64,000 nt of DNA from sequence record NZ_CP118109.1; one strand, given 5' to 3'. Source of the stretch: a plasmid. The notes under the pieces are model-generated. The model ran no database searches and was not told the origin of the DNA. It worked only from the letters and a program-made list of their open reading frames with translations. Position 1 is the stretch's first letter. The number at the start of each line of letters is the position of its first letter. The translations under genes were made by a program, and so were the position numbers. Shown piece after piece: positions 2,619 through 56,731 of this stretch.

Positions 2619-3722
2619 TTAGTTTTGATAAATCTTAGAGGCGAATCGGCGCTGAGCTTCATCTTCCGCTTGGATAAACAGAGAGTAATCGGGAATAAAA
2701 TTAAAGAACTTAGTACTCTTCATGGATGCGTGCTTATTCTTAGCGAACTTCACTTCCACGACAGGCATCTTCAAGTCTTCATCTTCATCGACCCAATAGA
2801 TTTCAGCATTCTCTTCCTTGATGCCGACTTCGTTGTACATAAGGCAGACCATTGTTGCTTCATAACGAAGAGTGATTGTATCCTTCAGATCATCCTCTAT
2901 CGGACGCTTGCCGTTCGTTTTACGCAAGTGAGCTGTACACATAACGACAACATCAAATCTTGTAGCCCAGCCTTTGATCGTTTTAGATACGTGAGCCGTC
3001 TTATCATCATTGTTGCTGAAGGTCTTGCTCTCTACTGTCAAGTCATTGAAGGAGTCAATTGCAATTACGATTCGAGTGCCTTCAGGCATCGTCATCTTAA
3101 TATCCTTGATGTGCTCTTCAATGGCTTCAACGCTGGTCATATCATTGGAATCGAACATGCCGAAGCGGTCTACTCTGCGATACAGGTTCTTGATTCCTTC
3201 ATTACGCTTATTGATAATCTCTTCATCGTCTTCATACTTAGCTGGCGACTTTGCTTGGCCGATCGTGATTTGTTGATCGTTGGCAATATAGCGCGGCATA
3301 AGATCGTTATTGGCATCATCAAGCGAATGATACGAAACATAGACCTTTTCATTTCTCTCTGATATTCCTTTACATACTTGAAGCATGTAGGCGGATTTAC
3401 CGACGTTTGGTGCAGCGGCAAATAAGATAAGCCCAGGCTGAGCCCCGCCTTCAAAGGCGTCATCGAATGATTGCAACCCTGAAATTAATCCCCCGTTTTT
3501 CCCTCTGGCCCATGAGTGAGCATCCATATTCATGATATTGCGGAGCATCTTTTCTTCGATTCTGTTTAACGGACGACCAAGTATTCCCTCGACATTTGTA
3601 ACAATAACCTTTTTTCTCATTTCGGGCTCAAAGCCGAATGCATTTGGATCTTGCTGCATTTGTCTTTCAACTTGATGCATGATGTCCGTAAAACTAAATT
3701 GTCCTGGCTGTGTATTGCTCAT
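2619..3722 (-). CDS. DnaB-family replicative helicase carrying the RecA-like C-terminal ATPase domain. Walker A is AAPNVGKS, Walker B is IAIDSFNDL, and the downstream motif is TAHLRK.
   Basis: The true start is probably the ATG at 3722 (MSNTQPGQFSF...), preceded by GGAAGGAG 5 nt upstream. The track ORF instead begins at 3881 and runs through non-coding-looking sequence. The GLISGLQSFDDAF...GKSAYMLQ pattern matches DnaB helicase motifs H1/H1a. Confidence 0.75.
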   Translation of the reverse strand: MSNTQPGQFSFTDIMHQVERQMQQDPNAFGFEPEMRKKVIVTNVEGILGRPLNRIEEKMLRNIMNMDAHSWARGKNGGLISGLQSFDDAFEGGAQPGLILFAAAPNVGKSAYMLQVCKGISERNEKVYVSYHSLDDANNDLMPRYIANDQQITIGQAKSPAKYEDDEEIINKRNEGIKNLYRRVDRFGMFDSNDMTSVEAIEEHIKDIKMTMPEGTRIVIAIDSFNDLTVESKTFSNNDDKTAHVSKTIKGWATRFDVVVMCTAHLRKTNGKRPIEDDLKDTITLRYEATMVCLMYNEVGIKEENAEIYWVDEDEDLKMPVVEVKFAKNKHASMKSTKFFNFIPDYSLFIQAEDEAQRRFASKIYQN

Positions 3723-3896
3723 AGCTGCTCCTTCCATACGGCTTATCTCTCTCCCGTGTAATACCTGCGAGTGTTCGTAAGCATTACACAGGGAGAGATC
3801 CCTGTGTGTTGTGTGTTGGGTGAAGTTGAGGTTCGAGCAGGGTCCTAAGCTGCCCCTTACAAGGTGCGTATAAAAACACAACCCTCTAAGGGACGC
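3723..3896 (-). promoter_or_regulatory. 174-nt structured non-coding spacer between the primase and helicase genes. It holds perfect hairpins and GT-rich direct repeats and is a candidate replication origin or regulatory RNA.
   Basis: An 8-bp perfect stem CACAGGGA/TCCCTGTG with a GAGA loop lies at about 3787-3806. A hairpin CTAAG-GGACG-CTTAG lies at about 3877-3891. A GTGTGTT GTGTGTT GGGTG run is present. A degenerate copy of the TGTAA...TTACA motif lies at about 3752-3790. Confidence 0.3.
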
Positions 3897-4994
3897 TTAG
3901 GCCTTTTTCTCTTCCTCTGCTTTTTTATTCAACTCTTTATTAAAGAGAGGACATTTATCTTTATCGCATACGCCGCTCAGTCTAGCAAAAGCTTCACAGC
4001 CGTATCGGTATTGTCCGTTATAAACTGAGTTCACAATAGTTTCGATATCTCTTCTGTTCAATCGAGGCATGCAGTTCTCTTCGCCCCATATGAGCATCCG
4101 CGCCATTGCTTCATCTCGTTCCATTCCTTGCTGCATATAGAAGCTGGTAAGTGCAGTCCCAGAGTTATTACGCTCGTCCACAGTTTCTTTAAATGTACGC
4201 TCAAGCATGGTCTGAATGCATGGCGGCAGAGTTTCTAGCTTGCGAATCTTCCCTTGGTATTCCTTTGCTTTTATATTCCGTTCGGTCCATTTTTGGATGT
4301 ACCGATCAAGGGATAACTTAGCTCTATTTGATGTTACCAGTGGAGCAGGTTGAAGGAATCTCGGTTCTTTTGCCAGTTCCTTAATTTGTTCTAGTGTACA
4401 AGTGCGAAGCTCCTGCTGCGTTATGGGTATCTTATAATGACCACCCTTCTTATTGAAGGAGTTGACCATTCGAAACATGCGCTTATCATCGTATATTGCT
4501 GTATCCATTGTTCCAAACAGTGTGTACTTCGCGATATCAAGTGCAATCTCACGGTAGATTTGATTCAGGGATACGTGCGGATTTAGCCCAAGCACATGTC
4601 CGCTGACAGTCAAGTGAATCCCTTTGTGTCCCGAATAAAATACATTGATCTGATCAGGCTCGATTGAAAGAATATGCTTAAGATAACGAAAGGCAATATG
4701 CACGTCATACTTTAATTTGGTGTAATCCTCTTCTGTCTCTAATGGCTTATCAAAGTCCAGATAAAGATCGCCCCATTTCAGAGCATCCCTTGCATTCAAT
4801 ACCCATTTCCCTTTTTCATTTTGAAAGAACTCAGGGTTAATGTATTGCATTACAGTCTCATAGACGCCTATGTTGTTGTAGTAATTCCGAAACTTGATGG
4901 TCTCGGAAGGATGCATATAATGCTTTCGTGTAAATGGAAACTTTTCCGAATTGGTGTCCGCTCCGCATTCCACAAAAAGCTGGAACTCATTCAC
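3897..4994 (-). CDS. Archaeo-eukaryotic-type primase-polymerase (AEP / Prim-Pol) with a Cys-containing C-terminal (PriCT-like) region.
   Basis: AEP motif I is LYLDFD, motif II is YSGHKGIHL, and motif III is DTAIYDDKRMFRMVNSFNKK. The GTG start at 4994 overlaps the TGA of the upstream gene (GTGA) and follows the SD AGGTGAT. Confidence 0.75.
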   Translation of the reverse strand: MNEFQLFVECGADTNSEKFPFTRKHYMHPSETIKFRNYYNNIGVYETVMQYINPEFFQNEKGKWVLNARDALKWGDLYLDFDKPLETEEDYTKLKYDVHIAFRYLKHILSIEPDQINVFYSGHKGIHLTVSGHVLGLNPHVSLNQIYREIALDIAKYTLFGTMDTAIYDDKRMFRMVNSFNKKGGHYKIPITQQELRTCTLEQIKELAKEPRFLQPAPLVTSNRAKLSLDRYIQKWTERNIKAKEYQGKIRKLETLPPCIQTMLERTFKETVDERNNSGTALTSFYMQQGMERDEAMARMLIWGEENCMPRLNRRDIETIVNSVYNGQYRYGCEAFARLSGVCDKDKCPLFNKELNKKAEEEKKA

Positions 4995-5677
4995 TGTGCG
5001 ATCACCTGTTTTCGAATCACTCGGTTAATCCCATGTATCTGATGAATATTCTTCTTTTGTGATATCGTCTCTCTAGCTTCATCTACATATTTCTCAATAT
5101 CAAAAGCGTTTCGAAGAAGGCTCCGTTGCCAGCTTAAGCGAATGCGCTTTGCTTCATCGATGGCAAACAGGATTTCGTCCAGATCATAGATGCCGAGTAA
5201 GTAATTAAATTTTCCTTCATCCTGCTTAATCATATGAGGATTGCTCTGAATGTTCATCTTTTCATACCAGTACTCAAGCAGTTCTTCCATCGTAAAGCGT
5301 TTCTTCATCTCCAAGAAGAACGGCTCCACTTCTTGAATATATTTGCCGTCCGGTCCTTTACGCATCTTAGGCGCAGGAGAAGTTTCCCTCAGCCGGTTGT
5401 GATAGTAGAAGATATCCGGATTCATGATATTCTTCGGTGGTTTCTTTGTGGCGAAAATCTCTTCAAGCATATAAATTCGTTTGACCATATCCGGGTAATC
5501 TTGGGCAAACTTCTCGATCTCTGCTTGAATCTCTTCCAGCTCCCATCCATCCTTAACTAATTTCTGAATAGATGATATGTTAGTCCGGATACGAGAGTCG
5601 GCATTCTGTATCGGAATACCGACTATCGTGCATACGAACCATCCTGAGAGCTGATAAATCAACCCATCTCGATTCAT
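4991..5677 (-). CDS. Hypothetical 228-aa protein of the replication module.
   Basis: Its ATG overlaps the TAA stop of the single-strand annealing protein gene (TAATG). No recognisable motif. It lies between the annealing-protein and primase genes. Confidence 0.45.
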   Translation of the reverse strand: MNRDGLIYQLSGWFVCTIVGIPIQNADSRIRTNISSIQKLVKDGWELEEIQAEIEKFAQDYPDMVKRIYMLEEIFATKKPPKNIMNPDIFYYHNRLRETSPAPKMRKGPDGKYIQEVEPFFLEMKKRFTMEELLEYWYEKMNIQSNPHMIKQDEGKFNYLLGIYDLDEILFAIDEAKRIRLSWQRSLLRNAFDIEKYVDEARETISQKKNIHQIHGINRVIRKQVIAQ

Positions 5678-6879
5678 TAGGCGGCAAACTTCTCCAAGAA
5701 GATATTAAATTCAGCTAAATTCCCCGGAGTTAAATCGCCTGGAACTGCATCCTCTTTCTTCAAGAACTCTCTGAGTAAAGGAAGCATGTCGTTATCGGTT
5801 TGTATATTGAGCCTTGCCTTGTGCTGATGTATCTTTTGTATCTCAACCTGATCCCATTGCGGCGGAATAGCACTTTGCTGCGGAGCACTCTGTGCCTCAG
5901 TTTGAACCGGCGCGCCAACTGGTTTAGCTTCAGCCTTGAATGCTTGCGGCGTTGCTTCCGCTTGAGGGGTCGCTTGGAACGACTGCTCTTTAGCAGCTTC
6001 TGGTTGCTTGTTCGGCAGATTGCGCTGATCCCAAGCAATGGCTTCTGGTGTGTTTGGCTCATGAGGATTAAATGGATATTGATCTTCATGAAGCTCTGGC
6101 GCTACATTAAAATTTCCGTTAGCCTCGTTATTTACATCTACAGCCCAGTTCGTTTGCTGTTGTGGTGCGCCCCACTGTCCGTTAAAGCCACCTTGCTGTT
6201 GTTGTGAAAACTGCTGCTGCTGTTCAGGCGTAGGTTGGAAATAAGCTTGCTGTTGCTGTTGTTGATACGGATCAGTATAAGGCTGTCCGAAGCTTTGCTG
6301 AGGCTGAGCATAAGTTTCTTGCGGCTGCTGGAACCCACCTTGCGGTTGGTGTTGGAATTGATACTGTCCGCTTTGCTGCATTTGATCATAAGCGTTTTGT
6401 TCCTCATCAGCATCCGTTTCGACTTTAATTTTGGAATAGATAGACTCGCCTACGCCAAAGAGTGATGCCGCTTTTACTAAGACATTAGAAGCAGCTGCCT
6501 TATAAGCACTGTCTTGATTATCCTTGCCGCCGACAGCAATTTTGCAACCATATTGCTCACGCTGGCCAAGTCCGGGAATGAACAGGAAGCCGCGAGCGTG
6601 ATAAACATATCCATCAAAGGACCATGTCTTGGAATCCTTATCATACTTGTAGACTTCTTCTCTCCAATTATCAATCAAGCCGAAGTCCCAATACGTATAT
6701 CCTGACACAGCGTTATCTAAAATTTGGCGAACGGTGTTTACGCCCATATACTTACTTGCAGGTTTCTTTCCGCTCCCCGGTTTGGTTTCTAGCCATTCGT
6801 CCTTACATTCCTTCAAAGACTCACGGATCTTTTTGATCTGATCCATGTCCGGAAGGTATTTCTCAATTGTAGGTCTCAT
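5677..6879 (-). CDS. Rad52/Sak-like single-strand annealing protein (SSAP): an N-terminal annealing domain, a long Gln/Pro-rich low-complexity linker, then a C-terminal domain.
   Basis: The likely start is the ATG at 6879 (MRPTIEKYL), preceded by AGGAGG 6 nt upstream. The track ORF begins 96 nt further upstream and would overlap the promoter -10. YMGVNTVRQILDNAVSG.YTYWDF and KAAASNVLVKAASLFGVG resemble the two Rad52 signature blocks (Y.sG..vi..aN.iFG.nGWS and kkA.tDalKRalr.FGn.lG). Confidence 0.55.
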   Translation of the reverse strand: MRPTIEKYLPDMDQIKKIRESLKECKDEWLETKPGSGKKPASKYMGVNTVRQILDNAVSGYTYWDFGLIDNWREEVYKYDKDSKTWSFDGYVYHARGFLFIPGLGQREQYGCKIAVGGKDNQDSAYKAAASNVLVKAASLFGVGESIYSKIKVETDADEEQNAYDQMQQSGQYQFQHQPQGGFQQPQETYAQPQQSFGQPYTDPYQQQQQQAYFQPTPEQQQQFSQQQQGGFNGQWGAPQQQTNWAVDVNNEANGNFNVAPELHEDQYPFNPHEPNTPEAIAWDQRNLPNKQPEAAKEQSFQATPQAEATPQAFKAEAKPVGAPVQTEAQSAPQQSAIPPQWDQVEIQKIHQHKARLNIQTDNDMLPLLREFLKKEDAVPGDLTPGNLAEFNIFLEKFAA

Positions 6880-6959
6880 AGACGCCTCCTGTATACTGAC
6901 TGCTTTCTTATTATATTCTTCAACAGATGCCGAAGCAACACCTAAATGTAATGCGTTAC

Positions 6960-6996
6960 ATTTGTATGATAGCACGCTGAATTTTAGGAATCAAGA
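6960..6996 (-). promoter_or_regulatory. Sigma-A-like promoter for the replication/recombination operon: TTGATT - 17 nt - TATCAT, reading on the minus strand.
   Basis: The -35 is at 6994-6989 and the -10 at 6971-6966. It is followed 3 nt later by the 18-bp palindromic motif at 6962-6945 and then the 5'UTR leading to the SD/ATG at 6879. Confidence 0.4.
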
Positions 6997-7039
6997 GAAA
7001 AATTGAAAAAACGCAAGATATCGAGAGATATCTTGCGCT
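6990..7039 (-). terminator. Rho-independent terminator ending the late (structural + lysis) transcription unit.
   Basis: Perfect 11-bp stem CGCAAGATATC / GATATCTTGCG with a 4-nt loop (GAGA on plus, UCUC on the minus transcript). On the minus strand it is followed immediately by TTTTTTCAATTTTTC. It lies 18 nt downstream of the Holin_LLH-like stop. Confidence 0.7.
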
Positions 7040-24246: not shown

Positions 24247-24278
24247 ATAAAAAACAGCCCGCAGTATATGCGAGCTGC
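24247..24278 (-). terminator. Candidate partial intrinsic terminator or attenuator between the 1723-aa gene and the downstream genes.
   Basis: An interrupted GC-rich hairpin (CAGC...CGCA-TATAC-TGCG...GCTG) on the minus strand is followed by UUUUUU and then immediately the RBS AAGGAGG of the next gene. Confidence 0.35.
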
Positions 24279-24304
24279 TGTGTATTATCATATCATGTAA
24301 CGCA

Positions 24305-27300
24305 TTACAATTCTATAAATTCCACTCCATCTATTTCCGTAAATTTCGGGAACATCTTAACATAGTCTACAAGAATGCCACCTTTAGCCTCCTTGCTGTT
24401 CACCTGAATAATAATGGAATCAACATTGCCGTCATTCATAATGTCAGCCGTATAGATCATCCAATCTTCGCTGTTGATTGTGGCCATCGGCACTTCTGCC
24501 GTTTCTCCGTTTCGATATGCATACCGAATGACAGCTGCTGAACGATCCTCCGCCTTAGACATCTTCTTCGCTTTGATATCCAAAGTGTAGTCGCTGTATT
24601 CCAGATTGGCTGTGGAGAGCAGGATGCCGTATACGCCTCCCTCTGCAATTTGAAGGATAGAGTTATCGCCAGTACCGAGATCTTGCTGATTAATGAAGTA
24701 TAATCCGCTTGATAGATTCGCATTATATTCATTCAGGTGCTTGCCGTAAAGGAACTCCGGATTGCCAAGCACGTTAAGATCGGTTGGTTGCGGATCGTAA
24801 TACTCAATGATCGGCAGGATTCCGTATCCTTTATGCTTCGCTACAGCTGCTTGCACTTCAGCTTCACTAAATCCGTTTGGATTATTTGGAGTGGCTAGGA
24901 TACTGCGTGGGAGCCGAACAATAATGACTCCATTTTCCTGATATGCTTCTCCATCAAAGTATCCGATATCCCAATGGTAAAGTGATTCTTTATTTACCTT
25001 GGCAATGACCGCTTTAGATAATGCTTCATCCAGACCGCCGCCTCTTGTCCGGGTGTCCATAATGACCACATCTTTCTTAAGGCTGGAGTTGGCTTGGACT
25101 GTTACCTTCCCTAGTCGAAGCATGGATGGGTCATAGTTATAATCATCTGGCTCAAACCAGTAGCCGTCATCCGTATGGAAGATCGCTTGATTACGAGTTG
25201 TACCACTAATGAGCTGAGGTCCTGATTCCTCTTGTATCCAGATGGATGTGGGTCTTAGATAGACGTGCATTTGTCTAACTAATAACTCATTGCTTTGCTT
25301 CTCGGTCGTTGTGTACGATTCGCGCAGCGTCACATCTCCTGGAACCCATTCATGGAATCCATCTTGTGCCATCGTAAATCGGTGTCCTGGACTTGGGTTT
25401 AAATCCAGATGGAAGAACTCTCCGCTTCGATTGTATCCGCGGTACGTGTACCAATCTTCTACATAAGCATATCTCACAATCACTTCGTCCTGATCTCGAA
25501 TCCTATCGTGAAGATAAATGATACCTTTTTTCGCATCGATGTCGGAAACTCTTAGCTTACGAGACTGATTCATTCGGATCGCTTCGACTTCGAGATAGCT
25601 TACGCCAGCTTCGGATGCCATCGCAATTGGCGTGAATCCAACTTGAATCGCTTTATCATTAAGAATAACAGGATGCTCTCGATCAATCAGAATGACCGGC
25701 TCATTGTAGAACTCTTGGTTCGTATATTCCGGTACCGTATAATCCATGATGATTTCTTTTCGTTCTTCCGGATTCATCGGAGCGTAGGGAATCAGTTCTG
25801 GATAGTATACATAGAGCTGCGGCACTTTTTCACCAGCCTCATAATAAGGAAGGACGTATCGCTTCTTCACTCTGCCGTTCTTCACCCGTACATACCAGTT
25901 GTCGATCTCCGTGTTATCTCGCTCAACCTTTGGCTTCTCCATTTCGATCTTTTTATCATCATCAATCTTGATGGCCAGCACCGGTACTGACTCCAGCTCT
26001 TCGAAAGTTGTCCACGCTACAAGGTCAGCTGTAAGCCCTTCGATCACATTTTTTGTTCCCGGCTGCAGGATGTTTTTCATACGCATCCGGTTAACGCCTC
26101 GGTTTGCCTGATCCACCTCGAAGTATTCTCGGTTCTGCCAGTTGTAATGCCAGCGATAGTTCACTCGGTTCTCCCGATTGTTGCCTGCTGCATCCCCTCG
26201 CTCGATACGCAGAAGCAATTCATTTGCAGGAACGCTGGATGGAATGTTTAATTTCTCGAGGATGTTTCCTGTCCCGAAAAGAAGGCCCATTGATTTCATG
26301 CCTTCCTGCTTATAAATCTTATCTGTCCCTTCGAGTGGCAAGGTGAGTGGTGCTCCAATCGCAATGATCGGCGGCACATCAACCTCAGCAGAAACAGAGT
26401 TGTCACCGTTAATTCGAATACTTACGCCTTCACCGCTTGTTGCCCATATTCGATTCCAAGAGAAGTTCTGAATCTCAATCGGTATATTATCCTTTGTTAG
26501 CATTGGCGGGGTGAGTGTTACATTCATGACGCCGTCAGCCCTCATGACCGCCTTACCTGTGCCGGTAATATTCTTACGATTATCACTGGTTAGCCAAGGG
26601 GTGCTTAATGTCCCTCCTGCCTGGCTGCTGTTCGTAACTGCCCAAATGTAGCCATCGTTTCGAACCTCAGCCCGAAGGTCTACCGGATCACCGACAACAC
26701 TTGGAGTCGTAACAGTATAAGGCATACCATCACCATAGGTGTCTTTCATATATTGCTCAATGAGTGGTGTTAAGATATCGGCCGGCTTCTTGTCGGACAC
26801 CTTAACCCAATCGTTACTAGTCAGCGTCACGTTCTCCCAATCTGTACAGAGTTCGTGAACATCCAGCTCTGTGAATTTCAACTTAGACCATAGTGCATTC
26901 TCTTGAGAGATATTACAGATTCCATAAGAGCCTTTACTATAGGTGCTGTCTTCAGCTTCACATACCAATGTTCCTAATGCATCATCGGAAGTATCGTTAC
27001 CGATGTAGACCTGAAACTTACTACCGGCAACCACGACGCGAATCTTATATGTCTCCCCCGGCACCCATCCCTTTGCATTGTAGTTTACGTTGCTCGTAAT
27101 GTTCTCAAAGGATGTTTCTGTTCGATCTGATTTGTACTGGCAGTTTGGATGTAAAGCATCAGAGTAAGGCGGCAATGTTGTTGGACTGGCTTTGAATATC
27201 CCCTTCTTGCGGTTTTTAAATCCGTAGTCTGACATGTACTTTGTCATATTCGTTTCAGCTTCATAAGCGCTGTTAAATTTATTAGGGTCTGGATTCTTGT

Positions 27301-39320: not shown

Positions 39321-39368
39321 AATGTAATGCGTTACATTATACCATTATAAAGCCTGCTTATGTATAAA
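39321..39368 (-). promoter_or_regulatory. Internal late promoter with an extended -10 (TGGTATAAT) overlapping a copy of the 18-bp palindromic motif.
   Basis: The minus strand reads ...TTTATAATGGTATAATGTAACGCATTACATTGAAAGGAGGGTCGGTATG. Two overlapping TATAAT hexamers are present and the -35 is weak. The 18-bp motif is identical to the one at 6945-6962. Confidence 0.4.
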
Positions 39369-39403
39369 GAAAGGGTGTTCAGCGAAATGCTAAACACCCT
39401 TTT
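39369..39403 (-). terminator. Strong hairpin (a candidate bidirectional intrinsic terminator) that splits the tail-gene region into two transcription units.
   Basis: A 14-bp stem AAAGGGTGTTCAGC / GCTAAACACCCTTT with one mismatch and a GAAAT loop, 12 nt after the stop of the 149-aa gene. It is flanked by U-rich tracts on both strands. Confidence 0.55.
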
Positions 39404-41039: not shown

Positions 41040-42692
41040 TTAAGTCCAAGAATAAGATAAGCCGTATAATTCAAGTCCGTTTTCAAGAATCGTTTTTATT
41101 TTTAATTCGTTACCTTCCGGTAGATCAGAAAGATTCGTCAGCTCATCTGGAGTTACTTCTTTCCATGTGGTTCCATCATCTCTGGAAACATAGTATCCCG
41201 GACTTGTTGGATTCGTTAATTCTGCTTCCAAAGATAGAGATTGAACTGTCGGAGTAGCGACACTCATATCAACGAAAGCATCTACACCTCGAAAAGAAGG
41301 AGATATCTTCTCGTTTGTCGTCCACATGACTGTTGCTACATAAAAGGTGATTCCATCGAATGGAGCCAGCTGTTCAGCTGTAAGAGCCTTTAACTCTTCG
41401 GATGTCATCCCCTTGGCTGCTACATCGTTGACGTCTGTTTCAGAGATAGGAGCATCAATCCATGTTTCACTTTCCACATCAAATCTCTTCCAGGTTTCCT
41501 TATCTGTAGATAGGAAGTATCGAATGCCGGTGGAGGCTGAAACAGATTCTTGAGCTTCAAGTCCTCGTATGTTCGGAAGATTGCAGGTTCCGATAATCTT
41601 AAACGGCTGATCTATTGTGTAAATCAAATCCTTAATCTCATTTTTAAATTTAAGGAAATTCGTATTACTTTCATCTTGCAGCATTGCCGGATAACCTGTT
41701 TTGTTTTCTATATCGTTCATGGCTATACGTCCTGTAAAATAAATGTCCATTGAATCAGTGATGACTAAGAAAGCACCGTTTTGTGATGTTGCATCAATAT
41801 CATATGCTGGAGGCAGCGGGGTGCCGTCCTCATCCATAATCATTTCATTCCAGACTAATGAATTAGTTAAATTACCAATGCCAAGCGTGCCTTGGGTGTT
41901 GTTGCCCGTTGTATGCACTTTATTATCTAGATCTAAAGCAATAGTATTATTGTATCCTCCAACTGCCTTTTTCACATTATCTTTCATATAAACGAGGCTG
42001 GCTGAATTAGCACTTGTTCCGTATGCTAGCCCATATCCACTTCCACATCCATATAATTTGTTCTCAAACGTTAAAAACAATGAATGATTTAGTCCTGGCG
42101 ATATTTCTTTTACTCTCTCTTTTAGTTCAGGGAATACTTCTGTGAATTGATTGGGCGCACTATCTCCTATTCTATTAAACAAATTTGATCCAGAGGCCAT
42201 TACTCTTCCATCAAGCATTATTACCCAGCTAAAGCCAGGTCCTGCATAAACTTTATGAACGCCATCTATTACTTTAGTCCATGTAGGCACACTGCTAGTA
42301 TGATTCAGCCCCAATTCCCCGTTGCCATTAAATCCCATAGCCCATAAAGAATTATCTTCTTTAATAGCAAAGGAACAATCTGTTCCGGCTGCACAATATT
42401 TGACGCCTTCCATTATCTCTGTTATGACGCTATATTGCTGTTGGCCTTGCTCCAAGAATATGCCATTAGCATTGTTATTATTAAGACCCACCCCATAAAG
42501 TTTATCATTTATAATGAGTAATGTGTGATTGGGGCCTGCTGATACTTGCCTTGGCTTATAAGGAATTAATGTTGGGACAGCAATCGAGCCTCCAGTTGCC
42601 CACCCAAACATTCCTTTACTGTAACTATTATTTCCAACAAACCATAACTGGCCATCAATATCTTCAAAATAACTGCCTCTAGCATTAGCCAT
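41040..42692 (-). CDS. RCC1-repeat beta-propeller protein (family C paralog) with a conserved C-terminal module ending GLSYSWT. Putative receptor-binding protein.
   Basis: Multiple G.N..GQLG/ G.G..GY.LA-type blade motifs. C-terminus is YYVSRDDGTTWKEVTPDELTNLSDLPEGNELKIKTILENGLELYGLSYSWT. Confidence 0.6.
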   Translation of the reverse strand: MANARGSYFEDIDGQLWFVGNNSYSKGMFGWATGGSIAVPTLIPYKPRQVSAGPNHTLLIINDKLYGVGLNNNNANGIFLEQGQQQYSVITEIMEGVKYCAAGTDCSFAIKEDNSLWAMGFNGNGELGLNHTSSVPTWTKVIDGVHKVYAGPGFSWVIMLDGRVMASGSNLFNRIGDSAPNQFTEVFPELKERVKEISPGLNHSLFLTFENKLYGCGSGYGLAYGTSANSASLVYMKDNVKKAVGGYNNTIALDLDNKVHTTGNNTQGTLGIGNLTNSLVWNEMIMDEDGTPLPPAYDIDATSQNGAFLVITDSMDIYFTGRIAMNDIENKTGYPAMLQDESNTNFLKFKNEIKDLIYTIDQPFKIIGTCNLPNIRGLEAQESVSASTGIRYFLSTDKETWKRFDVESETWIDAPISETDVNDVAAKGMTSEELKALTAEQLAPFDGITFYVATVMWTTNEKISPSFRGVDAFVDMSVATPTVQSLSLEAELTNPTSPGYYVSRDDGTTWKEVTPDELTNLSDLPEGNELKIKTILENGLELYGLSYSWT

Positions 42693-42706
42693 TTCCGTTG
42701 CTCCTT

Positions 42707-43141
42707 CTATTCATGTGACCTTAATAGGAATTTATTAACTGTCCTATATGAGTATAAGATTACTTCCTCATTTGAGTATTCCAATTGCTTCACGGGAGTT
42801 CTCCTTATTAAGCCTATATCTTCATTGCTTGATTTAAGCTCAAGTGTACTTCCGGATCGTTGTATCTCACCAGTATCAAATTCCGGTGCAGATGCATTCG
42901 CCATGGCGACAATCTCTCTGAATCCTGTGAGGGCAAGCCTTACCTTAATGTATCTTTCCAGCTGTACTGTATCAATAGACACATGCTCACCAAACTGGAT
43001 GCCATCTTTTGATGTAGCCACACTGACTCCAATCTTTCCTGATCCGCCAGATACTGCATCAAACCGATCGATCTTCGAAACATTATCCCCAAGATCAATG
43101 ACCTCTGACTCCCATATTCCTGAGCCTTCAAAATAGTCCAC
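42707..43141 (-). CDS. Small 144-aa protein, family D paralog (SGIWESEVIDLGDN ... DGIQF ... ERYIKVRL).
   Basis: GTG start with the SD AGAGGTG. Paralogous to the 44845 ORF and to an internal segment of the 52289 ORF (GTWESEILDLGEGW). Confidence 0.45.
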   Translation of the reverse strand: MDYFEGSGIWESEVIDLGDNVSKIDRFDAVSGGSGKIGVSVATSKDGIQFGEHVSIDTVQLERYIKVRLALTGFREIVAMANASAPEFDTGEIQRSGSTLELKSSNEDIGLIRRTPVKQLEYSNEEVILYSYRTVNKFLLRSHE

Positions 43142-43172
43142 TCATTTCACCTCTTTAAAAGAGTGTAACACA

Positions 43173-44825
43173 TTACACCCATGAATAAGAAAGTCCGTGT
43201 AGCTCTAATCCATTATCCAATACTGCTTTAACCTTTAGCTCTTTGCCTTCTGACAGATCGCTCGTATTAGTCAACTCGTCTGGATTTACTTCCTTCCATG
43301 TCTCTCCGTCATCTATGGAGACAAAGTATTGTGGTCCTTTTGGCTCCTTAACAGAATAGTCCATTGTAACTGAAGCAACTACAGGAGTCGAAGCATTTAG
43401 ATCAATGAAAGCATCAATCCCGCTAAAGATTGGCGTAGTACTTGGATCGCTTGTAGCCAATGAAATGGCCACATAGAACGTAATACCAACTAGCCATTGC
43501 ACTTGCTCTGGAGGAAGACTTTCAACATCGGCAATAGTCATGCCGACTGTTTCGATTTCATCAAGGCTGGTTTCCACCCACTGAGCGCTAGCTTTATCAT
43601 ATCTCTTGTAGATCGATTGGTCTGAAGAGATTAAAAGCTTTGCAGTTGTTCCGTTTGGATAGATTCCTTTAATCTTTAAGTTTTGGATTCCGTTTTGCGG
43701 AGCGCAAGTAGCAATTAATCTTGCCGGCTGGTTTACAGGATACGTTTTAGGCTTTGAGATATTCGGTAGTATCATGATATCTTGTACATTTCGTTTTATT
43801 GGCGTCAAAACGTCCGACGTAGCAGTCGTCCCTTGTTGGCCATATACTTGTGACCCTACCGCATACAAATCCAGCGTGTCTTGAAGAAAATAAGATGCGA
43901 CGGTTCCCAAAAAAACCTGAGTTATATTCGACAAGCTATTAATCTGCTCAAATCTTAATCTCTTTTCGCTGTCACCCAGACCTAAGCTTCCACTACTATT
44001 ACTTCCTGTACCCCAAGCACTCCCATCATTTTTAACATAAACCGTATTGTACAAGGATCCATCTACCGTTTTCACATCTACATCAATTAAGATAGGCGTG
44101 GTTTGATTTACTGTATCGCCTGTGCCTAAGTTTCCGTTTGTATTATGCCCCCAACCATAAAGTTCCGATTGGGAATTAATATAAAATCCACTATAGTTCG
44201 AAGTAAATATTTCCCTAATATCTTCATCTATAGCCTCCAGAATTTTGATAAATTTATTATTGGCTGATACAGAATTAAGCAAAAATCCATATGTGTTGCT
44301 TCCAGCACCATAAATAGATCCGTCTGAAAGGAGAAGTATGGATGCGGAAACACCGCATGCTACCTTTTTAGCTGTCATTCCTTCAGGAAGAGGAACTTTA
44401 CTAAAAGTTGTTACATTGTTTCTATGACCTAAACCTAGTTGGCCATTATTATTGTTTCCTGTTGCATAAACCTCTCCGCTTCTTGTAATCGCCAATGCAA
44501 AATTTGATCCGCATGCTATATCTATTACATCCGATATGGTAGGAATAATAGCTATCGTGCCATTATTAATAGTTGTTCCTTTTCCAAGCTGACCTAAAAC
44601 GTTGTCACCCATTCCATATAGGTTTCCATCTTCACTTAAAGCTATTGCAAAGTTGATTCCCATAGACACTTTAATGAACTTCACACCTGGCGCTCTCGTA
44701 TTCTCGCTGAATACTGTTAAGTTACCGCCACTTCCGTTACCAATCTGACCTTTATCATTTTGTCCCGCAGAAACAATTTTATTATCTTTATTAATTAAGT
44801 GAATAAAGTTAGAAGCATGCGCCAT
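43173..44825 (-). CDS. RCC1-repeat beta-propeller protein (family C paralog) with a conserved C-terminal module ending GLSYSWV. Putative receptor-binding protein.
   Basis: At least 6 blades, each with a G(Q/N)LG(L/K/T)G motif. The C-terminal about 55 aa are nearly collinear with those of the 41040 ORF. Confidence 0.6.
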   Translation of the reverse strand: MAHASNFIHLINKDNKIVSAGQNDKGQIGNGSGGNLTVFSENTRAPGVKFIKVSMGINFAIALSEDGNLYGMGDNVLGQLGKGTTINNGTIAIIPTISDVIDIACGSNFALAITRSGEVYATGNNNNGQLGLGHRNNVTTFSKVPLPEGMTAKKVACGVSASILLLSDGSIYGAGSNTYGFLLNSVSANNKFIKILEAIDEDIREIFTSNYSGFYINSQSELYGWGHNTNGNLGTGDTVNQTTPILIDVDVKTVDGSLYNTVYVKNDGSAWGTGSNSSGSLGLGDSEKRLRFEQINSLSNITQVFLGTVASYFLQDTLDLYAVGSQVYGQQGTTATSDVLTPIKRNVQDIMILPNISKPKTYPVNQPARLIATCAPQNGIQNLKIKGIYPNGTTAKLLISSDQSIYKRYDKASAQWVETSLDEIETVGMTIADVESLPPEQVQWLVGITFYVAISLATSDPSTTPIFSGIDAFIDLNASTPVVASVTMDYSVKEPKGPQYFVSIDDGETWKEVNPDELTNTSDLSEGKELKVKAVLDNGLELHGLSYSWV

Positions 44826-44844
44826 AAAAAATCCCCCTCTTTAA

Positions 44845-45387
44845 TTAGTAATCACCTTTTATAAAATAGCTGCTGCCGCTTGAAGATATCTCTTCAGGTT
44901 GATTACTGGATTCGACTGCTGAGATTCCCACGATTCTTTTTAAAATTATAGTTGATTCGTTTAGGAAAGCTGAGACACCTATAGCATTCACACCAGAATC
45001 ATGTTCAGAAACAGTATCAATATCTAATATCCTTTTCATGATGCCATTCGTTGTCTTCAGTCCGATGTCATGTAGATTCAAATCAGAAAGGCCTTCATCC
45101 TTAAATGTTACTGAGTCAATATCGGTATTTCCGGTTATGAGTACACCAGGTGATAATTCTATTCTAAATCGAATATATCTCTGCACTGCAATACCTGAGT
45201 CAGCTGCTCTAAAATCAGAGAACTGGATTCCATCTGGAGAGTCAGCTATCAAAACATTGGTTTTCGCTGGGCTATCAAAACCGTCAGGAATTGAAATAAC
45301 CGGATTCAGTGACATGTATGATTTATAATTATCGCCTAGATCGATTACTTCTGAAGTCCAGGATCCCGAAGCCATATATTCTTCCAT
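44845..45387 (-). CDS. Small 180-aa protein, family D paralog (SGSWTSEVIDLGDN ... DGIQFSDF ... QRYIRFRIEL).
   Basis: Block similarity to the 42707 ORF. Located between an RCC1 gene and a family B gene. Confidence 0.45.
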   Translation of the reverse strand: MEEYMASGSWTSEVIDLGDNYKSYMSLNPVISIPDGFDSPAKTNVLIADSPDGIQFSDFRAADSGIAVQRYIRFRIELSPGVLITGNTDIDSVTFKDEGLSDLNLHDIGLKTTNGIMKRILDIDTVSEHDSGVNAIGVSAFLNESTIILKRIVGISAVESSNQPEEISSSGSSYFIKGDY

Positions 45388-45398
45388 TTTAAGCCTCC

Positions 45399-46784
45399 TT
45401 ATCTGGCAGGTGCACGTTTCAATTGAATGCTGCCATCGACTAGCTCTGTATTCTCAAACGTGCCTTTAGTTAAATCAAGAACATAGGTTTCGCTATCCTT
45501 AACCGATCCAGATTGTGCGACAACCACGAAAGTAGGTTTGGCATCGAGAACTTCGGCTATTGTTATTAATTCAGCGCTTCCCGCCCCACCTGTGTACTTA
45601 TGCAATGCTTCATCATAAGTCACATTGATTGAGCTTTCCTTATCCACCCCTGACTGATCTCTAAAGTCGTCAACGATCATGTCTGTCAGCTTATACCGAC
45701 TTTGATTGAGAAGGGCTGATACGCGAAGGTTATGCTTATTTAAGTTAATGGCCGTCTTCTTTTCCGTTTCAGAAATGATAGTATTGATTGGCTTTGACTT
45801 ATATAAAATAGAGAGCTTAGTTAAGCTAAGGCTTTTATCTGTTGGTGCTTCAATTTTCACCTTAAACTTCTTATTGAACTTCGACTCGATACTTCCAGCT
45901 TCTCCGATCGGCACAAATCCTTCACCAGTATCAGTGTAAATAACTGCACTAGTAAAGTCGTTTTCAACAAAGATAGGCAGTGTTTCAGCCATTTCATAAA
46001 GCTGCGTCCGCCCAATAATCAGAGTTGTAACTGCAGAAGATGTTGCTTTCTCAAAATAGAAACGGTAATACCGGTATTTAATACTGTTAGAGAAATTAAA
46101 CGTTCTGACAATTGCAGTAAACCAGCTGTCTCGATATCCTCCCCAGTCGCTTGTAGTCGCTGTCTGAGCATCTATCACATTCCAAGTATTCCCGTCATTA
46201 CTTCCTTCAAATCTCCAAGACCCTGGCATTCTATCTGCGTAAAAAGTCCCGCTCGTATTCTCAGTGCCCGTGGACATAGAATATTGAGTGATGAGTTTTT
46301 CTTCTCCAAGATCAATAGTAACAAAAGAGTTAGATGGACTTCCTCTCCACGCAGATCTCCAAACGTCACTAAACATACTGTATCCTGTTCCGCTTGATTG
46401 TGTAACCACTAGTGGTGCAGGGGCGGTGTTCGAAGTCATACTAGGAATTAATGCAGTATACTCACCTTCAGGTACAACTTTTGTTTGGATGCTTACTTTC
46501 TCAAGTTGGACTGCATCTTCCAATTCAATATCGCCAATCCACGTTCCCTTTCCTGTTAAGACGCCATCTGCAACAGAGACATTAGTAAGCTCTGCATCTT
46601 TCCATTTCTCATCAGATTGAATTGTATAGATTCCTTCATCTGATCCGATCCTTTTCGCCTCTAACGCTTCAAGTCTTTCCTTGGCATTAGCATAAATATC
46701 TTGGACTTCTGCACCTATTCGATTTGAAAGATTATTCATCTCTCGTTTGGCCTTATTCGCTTTTTGCAACGAAATAATATCCAC
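45399..46784 (-). CDS. Fibre/receptor-binding-like protein, family B paralog 2 (MDIIS N-terminus) with a discoidin-like domain (PGSWRFEGSNDGNTW) and the RYKLTDMIVDDFRDQSGVD block.
   Basis: Shared N-terminal and KYKL-block motifs with the ORFs at 39877, 52289 and 46831. Confidence 0.5.
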   Translation of the reverse strand: MDIISLQKANKAKREMNNLSNRIGAEVQDIYANAKERLEALEAKRIGSDEGIYTIQSDEKWKDAELTNVSVADGVLTGKGTWIGDIELEDAVQLEKVSIQTKVVPEGEYTALIPSMTSNTAPAPLVVTQSSGTGYSMFSDVWRSAWRGSPSNSFVTIDLGEEKLITQYSMSTGTENTSGTFYADRMPGSWRFEGSNDGNTWNVIDAQTATTSDWGGYRDSWFTAIVRTFNFSNSIKYRYYRFYFEKATSSAVTTLIIGRTQLYEMAETLPIFVENDFTSAVIYTDTGEGFVPIGEAGSIESKFNKKFKVKIEAPTDKSLSLTKLSILYKSKPINTIISETEKKTAINLNKHNLRVSALLNQSRYKLTDMIVDDFRDQSGVDKESSINVTYDEALHKYTGGAGSAELITIAEVLDAKPTFVVVAQSGSVKDSETYVLDLTKGTFENTELVDGSIQLKRAPAR

Positions 46785-46830
46785 TCATGCCACCTCTTTT
46801 ATGAAGTAAGATAAGGGGTAGGGATAAACC

Positions 46831-49047
46831 CTACGCCCAAGAATATGCAATGCCTTGCAATGATGCACCAGTAGGAATTGTTGCTTTAATCCGCAGGCTA
46901 TTACCACTCATTGCTGAGATATCAATAATTTGTTCCGCTCCTGCATTTACCCAGGTCTCTCCGCCGTCTAAAGAGAAAGCGTAAGTGACTGTGGCTGATC
47001 CGTCCGGAATGATAACCAGACTAGTTCTTGATGCAGGAAGAGTTTCGATCGGCATAACTACAATGCCGCTGCCGTCATATTCTTTGTTAATTGTATCATA
47101 AACGGCTGTGGTCAGCGATTCATCTACGCCAGTGTTTGTATCGAATGTATCGATAACTAGATCATGCAGCTTGTATTTTTCTATAGCAAGCAAAGCATTG
47201 CTCTTGAAATTGAGCTTTGCCATGTTAATTGTGTTGATTCGCTCCAAATCCTCTAAGCGCCCTTTAATTGTAAGCTCATCATAAGTCACCTTTATCGACT
47301 CAATGTAAGGCGTTACAGTTGTGATAGCATTAGCTGTAAAACTAATTTCGTCTGCGTATACTTCATCCTGTAAGGATTCCATTTCAAGATAGTAAGCGAA
47401 ACGGATTGTATTTGAAGACTGAATCAACATATTCCACTGATCACCGGTAAGACTGTTGAACGACTCTGATGTCATTCCGCTTGTCTTAACCCCCGGAAGA
47501 TCAGCTGCGACTGTGATCCAGTTCGAACCATCCCATGCTTTCCATGTTTGCCCTTGATCAACACTAGCAATGGCTTTTATTCCCACAGCATTTAAGCTAA
47601 TAGAATTTAAGCCTTCAGTAGGGATTAACATATCGCCTGCTGGCATTATGAGTTTTCCATGAGGAACTGCTTCTATACTAACCGTCCTTTTAGCACTCGT
47701 GTCATCCGTCCACATTAGCAGCTTTGCTTCGCCTCTCAGCTGATCAAATGGAGTAAAGGGCTCCGCTTCAAATATTATTTTTTCCTCTCTTGTCTCTTCC
47801 GAGGAGTACTGAAGTATACTGAAATTATCTTTCAGTTCATTCCATAACACTGATGATATATCTGAAATTGAGTCTATCCCTTTATCTAGGAAAAGTTCCT
47901 CTGTGGCTGGTGACTCTCCAACAACGAACCATCCTAGATCAGGACTATACCCTTTAATTTGATTATCTTCTGCGATCAGGAATTTTGTTTTAATCTCAAT
48001 TATCTGCTCCCAAAGTGATTTAACTCCGGAAAGAGGAATCTCTGCTGCACGTATTTTGCTTGTTGTATTACCAGATCCTAGCTGTCCATTGTTATTAAAC
48101 CCTGTTGTTCTTACAGTTCCATCTTCCATCAAAAACGCAGTATGGATATCTCCACAGGATATTTGCTTGATTCCAGAAAGCTCTATGCTTACAGGAGTTG
48201 TATAGCTTGAACCAGTATCTCCAATTGACATTTGCCCATTTGAGTTATATCCGCATGTCTTTGCCGTGCCGTCTTCCATAAGAAACATCGTATGATAAAA
48301 TCCGCATACAATATCTTTTGCTCCTGATACAGGAATATCAACAAGAAAAAACTGTGTGCCGCCTCCTACCCCCAGCTGTCCATTTGAGTTATATCCACAA
48401 CCTTTTACGTCTCCATTTTCTAATAAGAATACTGTTCTATTGTTATAGCATGCTATCTTCTTGACACCCGAAATTGGAACATCAATGGGAGAGTTCGATT
48501 GATTCAGCGTGTTTCCAACACCTAGCTCTCCATATCTGTTATAACCTGTTGCCTTTACCGTACCATCTTCCATGAGGAACATTGTATGCGTTGCGCCACA
48601 AGACACCTGCTTAACATTTGAGATGGCCACATCTGTAGGGATTGTTTTATTTTGTGTATTTCCAATTCCTAATTGTCCGTTTCCGTTGATTCCGACGGTT
48701 TTGACTGTCCCATCTTGCATCAAAAATACTGTATGATAACTTCCACAAGAAACTTGCTTTACATCTGAAATTTGGACATCGACAGGCGAAAGTTGATTTG
48801 CAGTGTTTCCAATACCTAACTGTCCATTGCCATTAAGCCCTGTTGCCTTTACAGTTCCATCATTCAGCAAAAACATCGTAGAGGCGTCTGAAAAAGAAAC
48901 TTGCTTTACGTTTGAAATTCCAATTTTGATAGGGGTTGAATTTACTGACCCTGTGCCGCCAGTCCCCAGCTGGCCAGAACTATTCAATCCGGCCGCCATT
49001 ACAGAGCCATCTTCCATTATAAAGAACGAAAATCGTCCTGTAGCCAT
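46831..49047 (-). CDS. Mosaic 738-aa protein: an N-terminal 7-blade RCC1 beta-propeller, a central family-B-like block (KYKLHDLVIDTFDTNTGVDES), and a C-terminal family-C-type module ending GIAYSWA.
   Basis: Seven G.NG(Q/E)LG.G motifs. The rest is by block similarity to the family B and family C paralogs. Confidence 0.6.
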   Translation of the reverse strand: MATGRFSFFIMEDGSVMAAGLNSSGQLGTGGTGSVNSTPIKIGISNVKQVSFSDASTMFLLNDGTVKATGLNGNGQLGIGNTANQLSPVDVQISDVKQVSCGSYHTVFLMQDGTVKTVGINGNGQLGIGNTQNKTIPTDVAISNVKQVSCGATHTMFLMEDGTVKATGYNRYGELGVGNTLNQSNSPIDVPISGVKKIACYNNRTVFLLENGDVKGCGYNSNGQLGVGGGTQFFLVDIPVSGAKDIVCGFYHTMFLMEDGTAKTCGYNSNGQMSIGDTGSSYTTPVSIELSGIKQISCGDIHTAFLMEDGTVRTTGFNNNGQLGSGNTTSKIRAAEIPLSGVKSLWEQIIEIKTKFLIAEDNQIKGYSPDLGWFVVGESPATEELFLDKGIDSISDISSVLWNELKDNFSILQYSSEETREEKIIFEAEPFTPFDQLRGEAKLLMWTDDTSAKRTVSIEAVPHGKLIMPAGDMLIPTEGLNSISLNAVGIKAIASVDQGQTWKAWDGSNWITVAADLPGVKTSGMTSESFNSLTGDQWNMLIQSSNTIRFAYYLEMESLQDEVYADEISFTANAITTVTPYIESIKVTYDELTIKGRLEDLERINTINMAKLNFKSNALLAIEKYKLHDLVIDTFDTNTGVDESLTTAVYDTINKEYDGSGIVVMPIETLPASRTSLVIIPDGSATVTYAFSLDGGETWVNAGAEQIIDISAMSGNSLRIKATIPTGASLQGIAYSWA

Positions 49048-54942: not shown

Positions 54943-54993
54943 GTATATTCCACCTTTCTGTTTAGTTTAGTACATTATACCGAACCAAACAAC

Positions 54994-56268: not shown

Positions 56269-56731
56269 TGTTATTCCCGCCTATCATGTTCAGAATCTCT
56301 TCGTATTCGTCATTAATCGGATTGAACTCCTGCGATCCGCTGACTACTTTAAAGTCGTCTGTGAACATTCGAATCTTGGGCGCGTACATGCCAAAAGTCA
56401 TCGTTGCAGGATCAAGCCTGAATCCGAGATTGTAATACGAAAAACCCTCTAAAACACCATTGTCCCGCGCTAGAATCCCAGCGCCGGACGTGTCATTGAT
56501 AATACCTACATCTGCATTTTTAGCTTGTGATGATTGCTCAACCATTTCATCAATATTCTGATCACTGCTCATCATAAGACCTTCTAGCTTAGCCATCCAA
56601 TTTTGCAATGCATTACACCCCCAAACTACTAAAGAAGTCGGATACACGAAACTTAAGATTATTCCAGAAGAGATCAAGCTGCCCTGGCTCTCGATAGTAT
56701 CCTGTGACGATTGGCTGTTTGCGATCGCCAT
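56255..56731 (-). CDS. Small baseplate-module protein. The track ORF is 158 aa and overlaps the upstream gene by 119 nt. The real start may be the internal ATG at about 56596 (MAKLEG..., 113 aa).
   Basis: The track ORF overlaps the 3' end of the 56613 ORF in the +1 frame. There is no strong SD for either start. Confidence 0.35.
   Translation of the reverse strand: MAIANSQSSQDTIESQGSLISSGIILSFVYPTSLVVWGCNALQNWMAKLEGLMMSSDQNIDEMVEQSSQAKNADVGIINDTSGAGILARDNGVLEGFSYYNLGFRLDPATMTFGMYAPKIRMFTDDFKVVSGSQEFNPINDEYEEILNMIGGNNNGEI

Follow-up and report, generated by a model that had tools for sequence, protein, structure and literature searches.

A short palindrome, ATGTAAYGCRTTACAT, recurs on predicted promoters throughout a 64,000-nucleotide stretch of plasmid sequence record NZ_CP118109.1 (the window), which is part of a jumbo myophage-like element. 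We infer, with a probability of roughly 0.6, that this 14-16-bp palindrome serves as the operator of a dimeric, probably winged-helix, global repressor encoded by the element itself. An earlier note, made from the letters of the window, had pointed to identical 18-mers at two promoter regions (6945-6962 and 39321-39338) and had proposed an operator for a dimeric regulator of phage or host origin or, as a fallback, a phage-specific promoter element. Both matches are exact and both sites are genuine, but the motif is not confined to two sites, as evident by the nine copies present in the window and the approximately 25 present per genome. Therefore, the promoters that the note had called early and late belong to one genome-wide regulon.

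Copies of the palindrome and the promoters that carry them

The 18-mer reads AATGTAATGCGTTACATT on the plus strand. Because all substantial open reading frames (ORFs) of the window lie on the minus strand, the relevant reading is AATGTAACGCATTACATT. When three or fewer mismatches are allowed, the 18-mer has 10 matches in the window against 0.10 expected, and its core, TGTAAYGCRTTACA, has four exact matches against 0 expected and nine with at most one mismatch against 0.05 expected. Non-coding DNA between the first and the last gene of the window amounts to 753 nucleotides (1.2%), and four of the nine core copies are non-coding. The three largest gaps (177, 108 and 72 nucleotides) hold one copy each, and a gap of 31 nucleotides holds a variant copy. 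The palindrome is thus far more frequent than expected by chance, and its copies are concentrated in the gaps. Seven copies had escaped that note, of which six are included in Table 1 and the last lies at 56604-56617. Overall, the palindrome takes the degenerate form (A/G/T)TGTAA-YGCR-TTACA(T/C/A).

All promoters described herein are sequence predictions. Among 43 oriented copies drawn from three unbiased sequences, a -10 hexamer with at least five of six positions matched lies within -3 to +20 nucleotides on the gene side in 23 cases and on the mirror side in 12. For TG-extended -10 elements, the corresponding numbers are 11 and 2. A generic sigma-70 scan of the window revealed no overall enrichment, and it confirmed the individual site at 6966-6994.

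Two arrangements can be distinguished. In the majority of cases (class A), the palindrome begins -2 to +19 nucleotides past the -10 element and is usually followed within 11-40 nucleotides by a ribosome-binding site (RBS) and a start codon. Such regions often begin with the terminator of the preceding operon and a strong, frequently TG-extended -10 element (TGnTATAAT), sometimes with a TTGATT -35 element at 17 nucleotides. In the second arrangement (class B), the 16-mer comes first and a TAnnnT hexamer follows, which places the palindrome within the spacer between the -35 and -10 elements. The class B spacing is fixed for each locus: it is 2 nucleotides ahead of the gene for a 352-amino-acid (aa) protein in the window (24295), in L040 and L049 and in Paenibacillus rhizovicinus, and 8 nucleotides ahead of the portal gene in three genomes. 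Genes located behind the copies span all functional classes, including nrdIEF, an operon for a Rad52-like protein, primase and DnaB, an operon for a PD-(D/E)XK nuclease, RemA and DnaE, and genes for dUTPase, S8 peptidase, endolysins, portal and tail proteins.

The two sites recognized originally are the clearest to read. At the replication operon (site 1), the order on the minus strand is the terminator with the 13-bp stem (7039-7010), TTGATT, 17 nucleotides, TG-c-TATCAT, ACA, the 18-mer, a leader of 66 nucleotides with GGAGG, and the ATG at 6879, and the 18-mer is indeed located 3 nucleotides past TATCAT as had been claimed. This order of terminator, promoter and operator recurs in relatives. 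At site 2, a terminator-like hairpin is followed on the minus strand by TGGTATAAT, whose last three nucleotides are the first three of the 18-mer, and then by AAAGGAGG, the ATG of the 480-aa gene and the 2787-aa gene. The overlap with an extended -10 element that the earlier note had described here is borne out, and the same -2 arrangement of -10 element and operator is present at P. rhizovicinus 112935. A class B copy at 24295 is followed by GA and TATGAT (24292-24287), such that the palindrome is centred near -22.5. Its layout of 16-mer, 2 nucleotides, TAnnnT and hairpin is also found in L040, L049 and at P. rhizovicinus 10730.

Table 1. Predicted operator copies and associated features of the window. 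Genes of the operon behind site 1 are named from PHROG matches and from the PGAP names of orthologues.
Feature	Position	Strand	Remarks
Operator copy at replication-operon promoter, predicted	6945-6962	-	Exact 18-mer AATGTAACGCATTACATT; 16-mer core 6946-6961
Sigma-A-type promoter, predicted	6966-6994	-	-35 TTGATT 6994-6989, 17-nucleotide spacer, TG-extended -10 TATCAT 6971-6966; consensus scan
Intrinsic terminator, 13-bp stem and T run	7010-7039	-	Closes lysis/virion operon just ahead of replication promoter
Operon behind site 1	2619-6879	-	Rad52/Rad22-like 5677-6879, 228-aa ORF, primase 3897-4994, DnaB-like helicase 2619-3881
Operator copy at promoter of 480-aa and 2787-aa virion genes, predicted	39321-39338	-	Exact 18-mer; RBS and ATG follow 16 nucleotides past 16-mer
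Extended -10 TGGTATAAT	39336-39344	-	Shares 3 nucleotides with operator (2 of the 16-mer); read from sequence
Terminator-like hairpin GGGTGTT...AACACCC and TTTCTTT	39366-39399	-	Ends upstream operon; read from sequence
Operator copy, second architecture (class B), predicted	24294-24311	-	16-mer TTGTAATGCGTTACAT 24310-24295 overlaps stop codon of 1723-aa gene
Strong terminator hairpin, 11 bp and T run	24253-24279	-	Directly past -10-like hexamer, ahead of RBS of 352-aa gene
Variant copy TGTAATGTGTTACA	43164-43177	-	31-nucleotide gap ahead of 144-aa gene
Intragenic copy CTGTAACGCATTACAA	63755-63772	-	Within 155-aa ORF, ~300 nucleotides upstream of 2145-aa tail-lysin gene
Intragenic copy AAGTAACGCGTTACAA	9227-9242	-	136 nucleotides upstream of 412-aa virion gene
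Intragenic near-copy, core TGTAACGCCTTACA	47302-47319	-	Within 738-aa RCC1-repeat gene
Near-copy CTGTAATGCAATACAT	4839-4856	-	Inside primase gene; encodes TVMQYI

Conservation among related phage-plasmids

Besides the replication module noted above and the tail lysin, Pfam and PHROG scans of the window reveal genes for RCC1-repeat fibres, the baseplate and a holin-like protein, together with an extended series of 'virion structural protein' families of the kind typical of Bacillus phage 0305phi8-36. Only distant relatives (26-33% identity) were found by tblastn among GenBank phages, namely Moorella phage MTATph1, vB_BauM_KLEB27-3 and 0305phi8-36. A megablast of 25 kb of the window against phages and plasmids gave no match, as did a look-up of exact proteins and a scan of genome contigs with a single protein. 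The close relatives are nine non-mobilizable plasmids of 140-260 kb, which share 57-64% identity over the 412-aa virion protein and reside in P. rhizovicinus, Bacillus halotolerans, B. licheniformis/paralicheniformis and B. cereus/thuringiensis. A 195-kb contig of Oceanobacillus profundus belongs to the same group. The nine plasmids are complete plasmids in isolates and encode ParM, complete virion and lysis modules and accessory cargo, and the combination of ParM with such modules identifies them as jumbo phage-plasmids. Inducibility has been shown by experiment for a more distant relative only, the plasmid prophage pBtic235 (PMC8026635).

The palindrome is a common property of this family. 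In IMG/VR, a search with ATGTAAYGCRTTACAT retrieved contigs that are relatives of the window, all of which carry several copies. The fully sequenced plasmid of P. rhizovicinus carries nine exact core copies against 0 expected and 25 with at most one mismatch against 0.03 expected, and the plasmid of B. halotolerans carries 19 copies within a stretch of 116 kb. In many relatives the sequence is fully palindromic over 16 bp (ATGTAATGCATTACAT or GTGTAATGCATTACAC). The centre reads YGCR, with a GC step that is invariant in nearly all copies, and the outermost pair varies without strict symmetry. No copy is present in 0305phi8-36, and none was found in a 50-kb stretch of a pBtic235-type plasmid that spans the RNR, DnaB, S8-peptidase and sigma-like genes.

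Conservation is evident at the promoter of the Rad52 operon, where orthologues of the 6946 copy precede the Rad52-like gene in P. rhizovicinus, B. halotolerans, B. licheniformis, B. cereus G9842, B. thuringiensis lyx16, Oceanobacillus and two IMG contigs. The distance from the -10 element to the 16-mer is 4 nucleotides in P. rhizovicinus, B. halotolerans, B. licheniformis, c2593 and Oceanobacillus, 2 nucleotides in c2617 and 13 nucleotides in the B. cereus-group plasmids. Most of these copies keep an exact core, the Oceanobacillus copy has a single mismatch (ATGTAATACATTACAT), and the B. cereus group has a variant core (TTGAAATGCATTACAA). When eight orthologous upstream regions from Paenibacillus, the B. 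subtilis group, the B. cereus group, Oceanobacillus and uncultured relatives are aligned with MAFFT, the sole invariant blocks are the TTG of the -35 element, TGnTAnnAT and the palindrome. As judged from this alignment, the pattern is the classical footprint of a predicted promoter with its putative operator. The palindrome is retained at orthologous promoters of elements from at least three host genera, although the DNA around it can no longer be aligned, and conservation over such a range of hosts favours a factor encoded by the element.

Four further copies are conserved orthologously, two of them within coding sequence. The copy at 63755-63772 is kept at the orthologous coding position in L128/L085 and at P. 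rhizovicinus 48473 despite an amino-acid change, and the copy at 9227 has orthologues at P. rhizovicinus 211376 and L067:5298, such that each of these intragenic positions (63756 and 9227) is retained in two further lineages. The near-copy in the primase gene encodes a conserved peptide with the same codons in every relative examined. Its 16-mer is identical in L192, L193, L194 and L198 and has a one-base variant (CTGTAATGCATTACAT) in L061, and it may be largely a coding coincidence.

Several variant forms and neighbouring features were also observed. The variant TGTAATGTGTTACA, with the centre TGTG, recurs at NZ_CP048288.1 193666 and 104790, L016:6444 and NZ_CP114067.1 59999. In three relatives it lies ahead of the S8 peptidase gene, which would fit selection for a weaker operator at this position. 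In P. rhizovicinus, a 'collapsed' form, TATA(A/G)TGTATTACATC (NZ_CP048288.1 130626 and 148397), in which the arms ATGTA and TACAT are 1 nucleotide apart instead of 6, comes after the -10 element of the promoters of two helix-turn-helix (HTH) regulator genes. A second conserved box, TTTCCCCAGGTTT or TTTCCCCATGTTT, lies 0-50 nucleotides upstream of some palindrome copies near an RNA polymerase-like gene (L177:~330-378, L093:~5130-5178 and NZ_CP048288.1 ~104770-104790) and may mark another promoter class. A search of the literature with the motif sequence yielded no relevant report.

The region 41040-49047 of the window contains three paralogous RCC1-repeat fibre genes (550, 550 and 738 aa) interleaved with small paralogous ORFs (144 and 180 aa), and is a duplicated receptor-binding module. 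Cargo includes agrB/agrD in P. rhizovicinus (NZ_CP048288.1 133872-134524). The B. halotolerans plasmid (NZ_CP114067.1 76677-90217, 111063-111275 and 127319-128494) carries a Rap phosphatase, an LXG toxin with YezG antitoxin, CsrA with the flagellin Hag, a small acid-soluble spore protein, RecA and UvrX/YolD. Iteron arrays are present at NZ_CP048288.1 117324-117658 (L187) and NZ_CP114067.1 143698-144132 (L196), in a divergent region upstream of an opposite-strand MerR-like coiled-coil protein of 226-236 aa. The P. rhizovicinus array has five ~22-bp repeats, CTCGCyCTACATGATAnnTCATA, and the B. halotolerans array has many TCAC-N-TGAT units. Because the repeats differ between plasmids, these arrays suggest a separate replication, partition or immunity module.

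A putative operator for a symmetric dimer

The earlier proposal of an operator for a dimeric regulator is favoured by the over-representation of the motif, its overlap with predicted promoters, its conservation at orthologous promoters and a geometry like that of a solved operator (see below). Two features of the operators of global repressors are found here, which are dispersed copies far above chance and overlap with predicted core promoters. In the mechanism we propose, a symmetric dimer of a sequence-specific protein, most likely encoded elsewhere on the ~200-kb phage-plasmid, would bind the 14-16-bp operator. At class A sites this dimer would cover approximately -6 to +25 of a host sigma-A-type promoter, and at class B sites it would fill the spacer from -30 to -15. 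Given that the putative operator lies on the promoter core, the bound dimer should keep RNA polymerase away or prevent open-complex formation or promoter escape. Since approximately 25 promoters per genome, ahead of nearly all lytic modules, carry the site, such a protein would be a global (master) repressor that would silence lytic functions during maintenance as a plasmid prophage or shut them off on schedule.

One alternative for a palindrome in this location is that it acts as RNA, as a hairpin in the 5' untranslated region that stabilizes the mRNA, is processed by RNase III, or serves as a translational operator or a nut/boxB-like loading site for an antiterminator. Most copies do lie between promoter and RBS, several adjoin terminators, and a stem of 6-8 bp with a 4-nucleotide loop can form. 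However, the marks of a structured RNA or terminator are missing: the hairpin is weak (-1.3 to -4.2 kcal/mol, with the 24295 copy no better than shuffled sequence), the arms are invariant with zero compensatory changes, and an Rfam search of the window gave no match. Furthermore, many copies begin -2 to +2 nucleotides from the -10 element, and transcripts that start 6-8 nucleotides past it would be without the left arm, whereas class B copies are upstream of the presumed start and would not be transcribed from that promoter at all. The weak hairpin, the invariant arms, the predicted truncation of transcripts and the perfect dyad together argue for recognition of duplex DNA by a symmetric dimer, which indicates that the palindrome is a candidate DNA operator on sigma-A-type promoters and makes a role in RNA very unlikely. 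A DNA element might still recruit a transcription enzyme of the phage, such as an RNA polymerase like YonO/gp99 or a sigma-70-family factor. Members of the clade code for a distant gp99/YonO homologue bearing the MGGADxDGD signature and for a sigma-70-family protein, the YonO promoter is still undefined (PMC5467207), and 0305phi8-36 has a repeated hairpin of its own that has been proposed as a phage-specific promoter (21-bp candidates; Hardies et al. 2007). Like the palindrome, that element is repeated, intergenic and upstream of RBSs, and 0305phi8-36 is a related jumbo phage that encodes a YonO-like polymerase as well. However, the 0305phi8-36 element consists of nnnCGTTCGCACGnnn plus TTnTGTA with covarying stems in one fixed orientation, whereas the palindrome has constant arms and a variable centre, and the fixed orientation, covarying stem and conserved loop of a phage-polymerase hairpin promoter, be it of the 0305phi8-36 type or N4-like, are not found in it. 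Identity with the 21-bp motif was rejected on the grounds that the hairpin there is a different one and palindrome copies are absent from 0305phi8-36. The distances from the palindrome to the RBS and to the conserved -10 element vary by more than 20 nucleotides, canonical -35 and TG-extended -10 elements are conserved together with it, and copies precede both early-type and late genes, whereas YonO transcribes late genes only (PMC5467207). A sigma-like gene is also present, by annotation alone, in a comparable position on the motif-less pBtic235-type plasmid, which leaves a sigma factor as a weak candidate for the determinant of the motif. For these reasons, the fallback offered in the earlier note fits a symmetric element with variable spacing less well, and we consider recruitment of a phage enzyme to be improbable. 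The specific version in which the palindrome is the recognition or loading signal of a single-subunit, two-barrel polymerase of the YonO type or its specificity factor, perhaps as an extruded hairpin beside an AT-rich, TATAAT-like melting region analogous to the different hairpin of 0305phi8-36, appears more doubtful still.

If the palindrome is indeed bound by a dimer, the dimer might act positively, as an activator or as a Q-like antiterminator that loads at the promoter. P1 late promoters carry an inverted repeat centred near -22, and the class B palindrome similarly fills the -30 to -15 spacer with a strictly conserved spacing to TAnnnT. Directly past the 24295 copy there is a terminator that late transcription must pass. 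However, most copies are downstream of strong TGnTATAAT promoters that should need no activation, and they occupy +1 to +20, a position typical of repressors, such that positive control seems a poor prospect. A somewhat better case can be made for a repressor supplied by the host, such as a winged-helix protein of the PadR family, through which host physiology would gate the promoters of the element. The solved complex of B. subtilis PadR contains the padC operator CATGTAAATAGTTACATG, which reads C-N-T-G-N-A-N6-T-N-C-A-N-G (PMC5728393), and ATGTAAYGCRTTACAT shares with it (ATGT-N8-ACAT) identical half-sites, ATGTAA and TTACAT, the 16-bp span and the 11-bp spacing from G to C. The motif is common to elements of related Bacillales hosts, and the cognate protein on the element is represented by candidates only. 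Unlike the PadR operator, however, the copies in the window and its relatives are flanked by A, T or G in place of C6/G23, where PadR makes its strongest base-specific contacts, and substitutions of C6 lower the affinity of PadR 19-38-fold (PMC5728393). PadR is also indifferent to the central 6 bp, yet the AYGCRT centre is highly conserved here, and the hosts span Paenibacillus, Bacillus and Oceanobacillus. Co-occurrence of a PadR-family protein with the motif was likewise not observed, because the RTP-like protein described below, the sole member of the PadR clan seen in relatives, dissociates from it. From these comparisons, the element may work like the operator of a winged-helix dimer, but it is unlikely to be a host PadR site itself, and we regard host control in general as unlikely.

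Within 0305phi8-36 (L074-L078), we observed eighteen hairpins with a covarying stem, the fixed core nnnCGTTCGCACGnnn, a T-rich stretch and TGTA 4-6 nucleotides later (e.g. at 144270, 164700, 181417, 189535, 198199 and 203381-207991). Covariation of the stem implies that these repeats act as hairpins. All of them are located in the right arm, on the strand of the genes and ahead of RBSs, and many also resemble terminators. Presumably they are the published '21-bp phage-specific promoter'. The gp99 homologue of the clade is a 1227-aa protein without a Pfam match (NZ_CP048288.1 99362-103045; L186/L187), which matches gp99, a YonO/RdRP-like RNA polymerase, by blastp with E = 3.5e-10, shares MGGAD(N/T)DGD with it, and has homologues in L093, L177, L164 and L092. 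By this homology, the clade encodes its own single-subunit two-barrel RNA polymerase.

Dispersed operators of this kind have precedents. P1 C1 and the KorA/KorB proteins of RK2 are encoded by their elements and each controls many scattered operons through a repeated operator that overlaps promoters, and the P1 ban (DnaB-like) operon is a C1 target. The palindrome would resemble these operators by analogy, in its dispersal over the operons of an element. In contrast, P1 C1 operators are asymmetric 17-mers that are not located at late promoters, and the proteins are unrelated as far as we know. CcpA binding at cre sites (TGWAANCGNTNWCA) needs a central CG, and TnrA/GlnR boxes read TGTNA-N7-TNACA and are bound by small MerR-family proteins. 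Identity with cre was rejected because the palindrome has GC in place of CG at its centre (YGCR), and each of the cre, LexA, Fur, TnrA and AraR sites differs from it in centre, in spacing or in both. TnrA/GlnR boxes do share the TGTNA/TNACA half-sites, and a small MerR-type protein found throughout the clade weakly matches GlnR structures. However, the spacer here is 4 nucleotides rather than 7, and the link between this protein and the motif is clade-wide co-occurrence alone. Another precedent is SPBRE, a short repeat found in silico in approximately ten intergenic promoter regions of the B. subtilis prophage SPbeta, whose 15-bp motif is bound by MrpR (YopR), a master repressor with a tyrosine-recombinase fold (PMC10516654). 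Both systems place a repeated element in promoter regions of a large Bacillus element, and SPbeta also has the YonO polymerase. Unlike SPBRE, our element is a perfect 14-16-bp palindrome with approximately 25 copies that include virion and lysis promoters. It belongs to a probable plasmid prophage from another phage lineage, and the element proteins looked at include no MrpR-like candidate.

Several observations weigh against an operator for an element-encoded repressor. A strong terminator immediately past the 24295 copy makes for an odd promoter site, and operators ahead of replication genes would silence functions that a plasmid prophage might need. The promoter-like gap at 54943-54993 (minus strand; GGTATAATGTAC..., with GGTATAATGTACTAAAC), which precedes the 194-aa tail gene, carries the left half-site alone and is a candidate for an unregulated or differently regulated promoter. 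Pfam and PHROG scans of the window ORFs revealed no DNA-binding regulator. Two additional points concern the candidate proteins: co-occurrence cannot choose among them, and the suggestive promoter layout of one is degenerate in B. cereus and P. rhizovicinus (see below).

Candidate regulators and meaning of the regulon

Among the first genes downstream of the copies, Pfam and PHROG scans found no DNA-binding protein apart from RemA. A RemA-like protein is encoded inside a motif-controlled operon in five genomes; to our knowledge, RemA sites are not palindromes. Three annotated HTH proteins occur in exactly the nine clade plasmids and nowhere else in PLSDB, and this shared distribution is why co-occurrence is uninformative among them. 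They are a MerR-type protein of 70-90 aa that adjoins UDG and is 57-93% identical, a winged-HTH (wHTH) plus coiled-coil protein of 173-205 aa with the conserved recognition helix SEATVHRA, and an HTH protein of ~331 aa. On pBL141-2 or the B. halotolerans B13 plasmid, their orthologues are WP_269108191, WP_163190094 and WP_269108146, respectively. The small MerR and ~331-aa proteins have no tblastn match in 0305phi8-36, and a shorter protein of that phage is weakly homologous to the wHTH plus coiled-coil protein (25% identity over 106 aa, E = 7e-6). In B. halotolerans and B. licheniformis, two motif copies flank the TGnTATAAT promoter of the wHTH plus coiled-coil gene itself, a layout like that expected for autoregulation. 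We tentatively rank this protein as the first candidate for the regulator and the small MerR protein as the second.

A 126-aa RTP/PadR-like protein of the P. rhizovicinus plasmid (Pfam RTP 5e-44, PadR 8e-8) was rejected as the regulator, as it is absent from motif-bearing B. halotolerans and present in the pBtic235 type, which has no copy in 50 kb. The protein is a true homologue of RTP, the replication terminator protein of B. subtilis. Its gene (NZ_CP048288.1 179893-180273; L188) is located at the junction of the two transcription arms, tblastn matches to it occur in 26 plasmids, and many 200-240-kb Bacillales phage-plasmids, the pBtic235 group included, encode it.

A dimer on a palindromic operator is a textbook mechanism, and the finding is therefore valuable as an entry point rather than for any new principle: elements of this kind are ordinary, and the regulon and its phage-plasmid family are new. 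The 16-bp duplex is a concrete bait for the regulator, the copies provide a ready promoter map, and the compact modules of strong promoter plus operator are possible switches for use in Bacillus. A global repressor matches the needs of a plasmid prophage, and the regulon of approximately 25 promoters is probably the master switch of a family of ~200-kb phage-plasmids that has hardly been studied. Carriers of the family include B. licheniformis, B. halotolerans, B. cereus/thuringiensis, Paenibacillus and Oceanobacillus, among them strains from food, industry and the rhizosphere.

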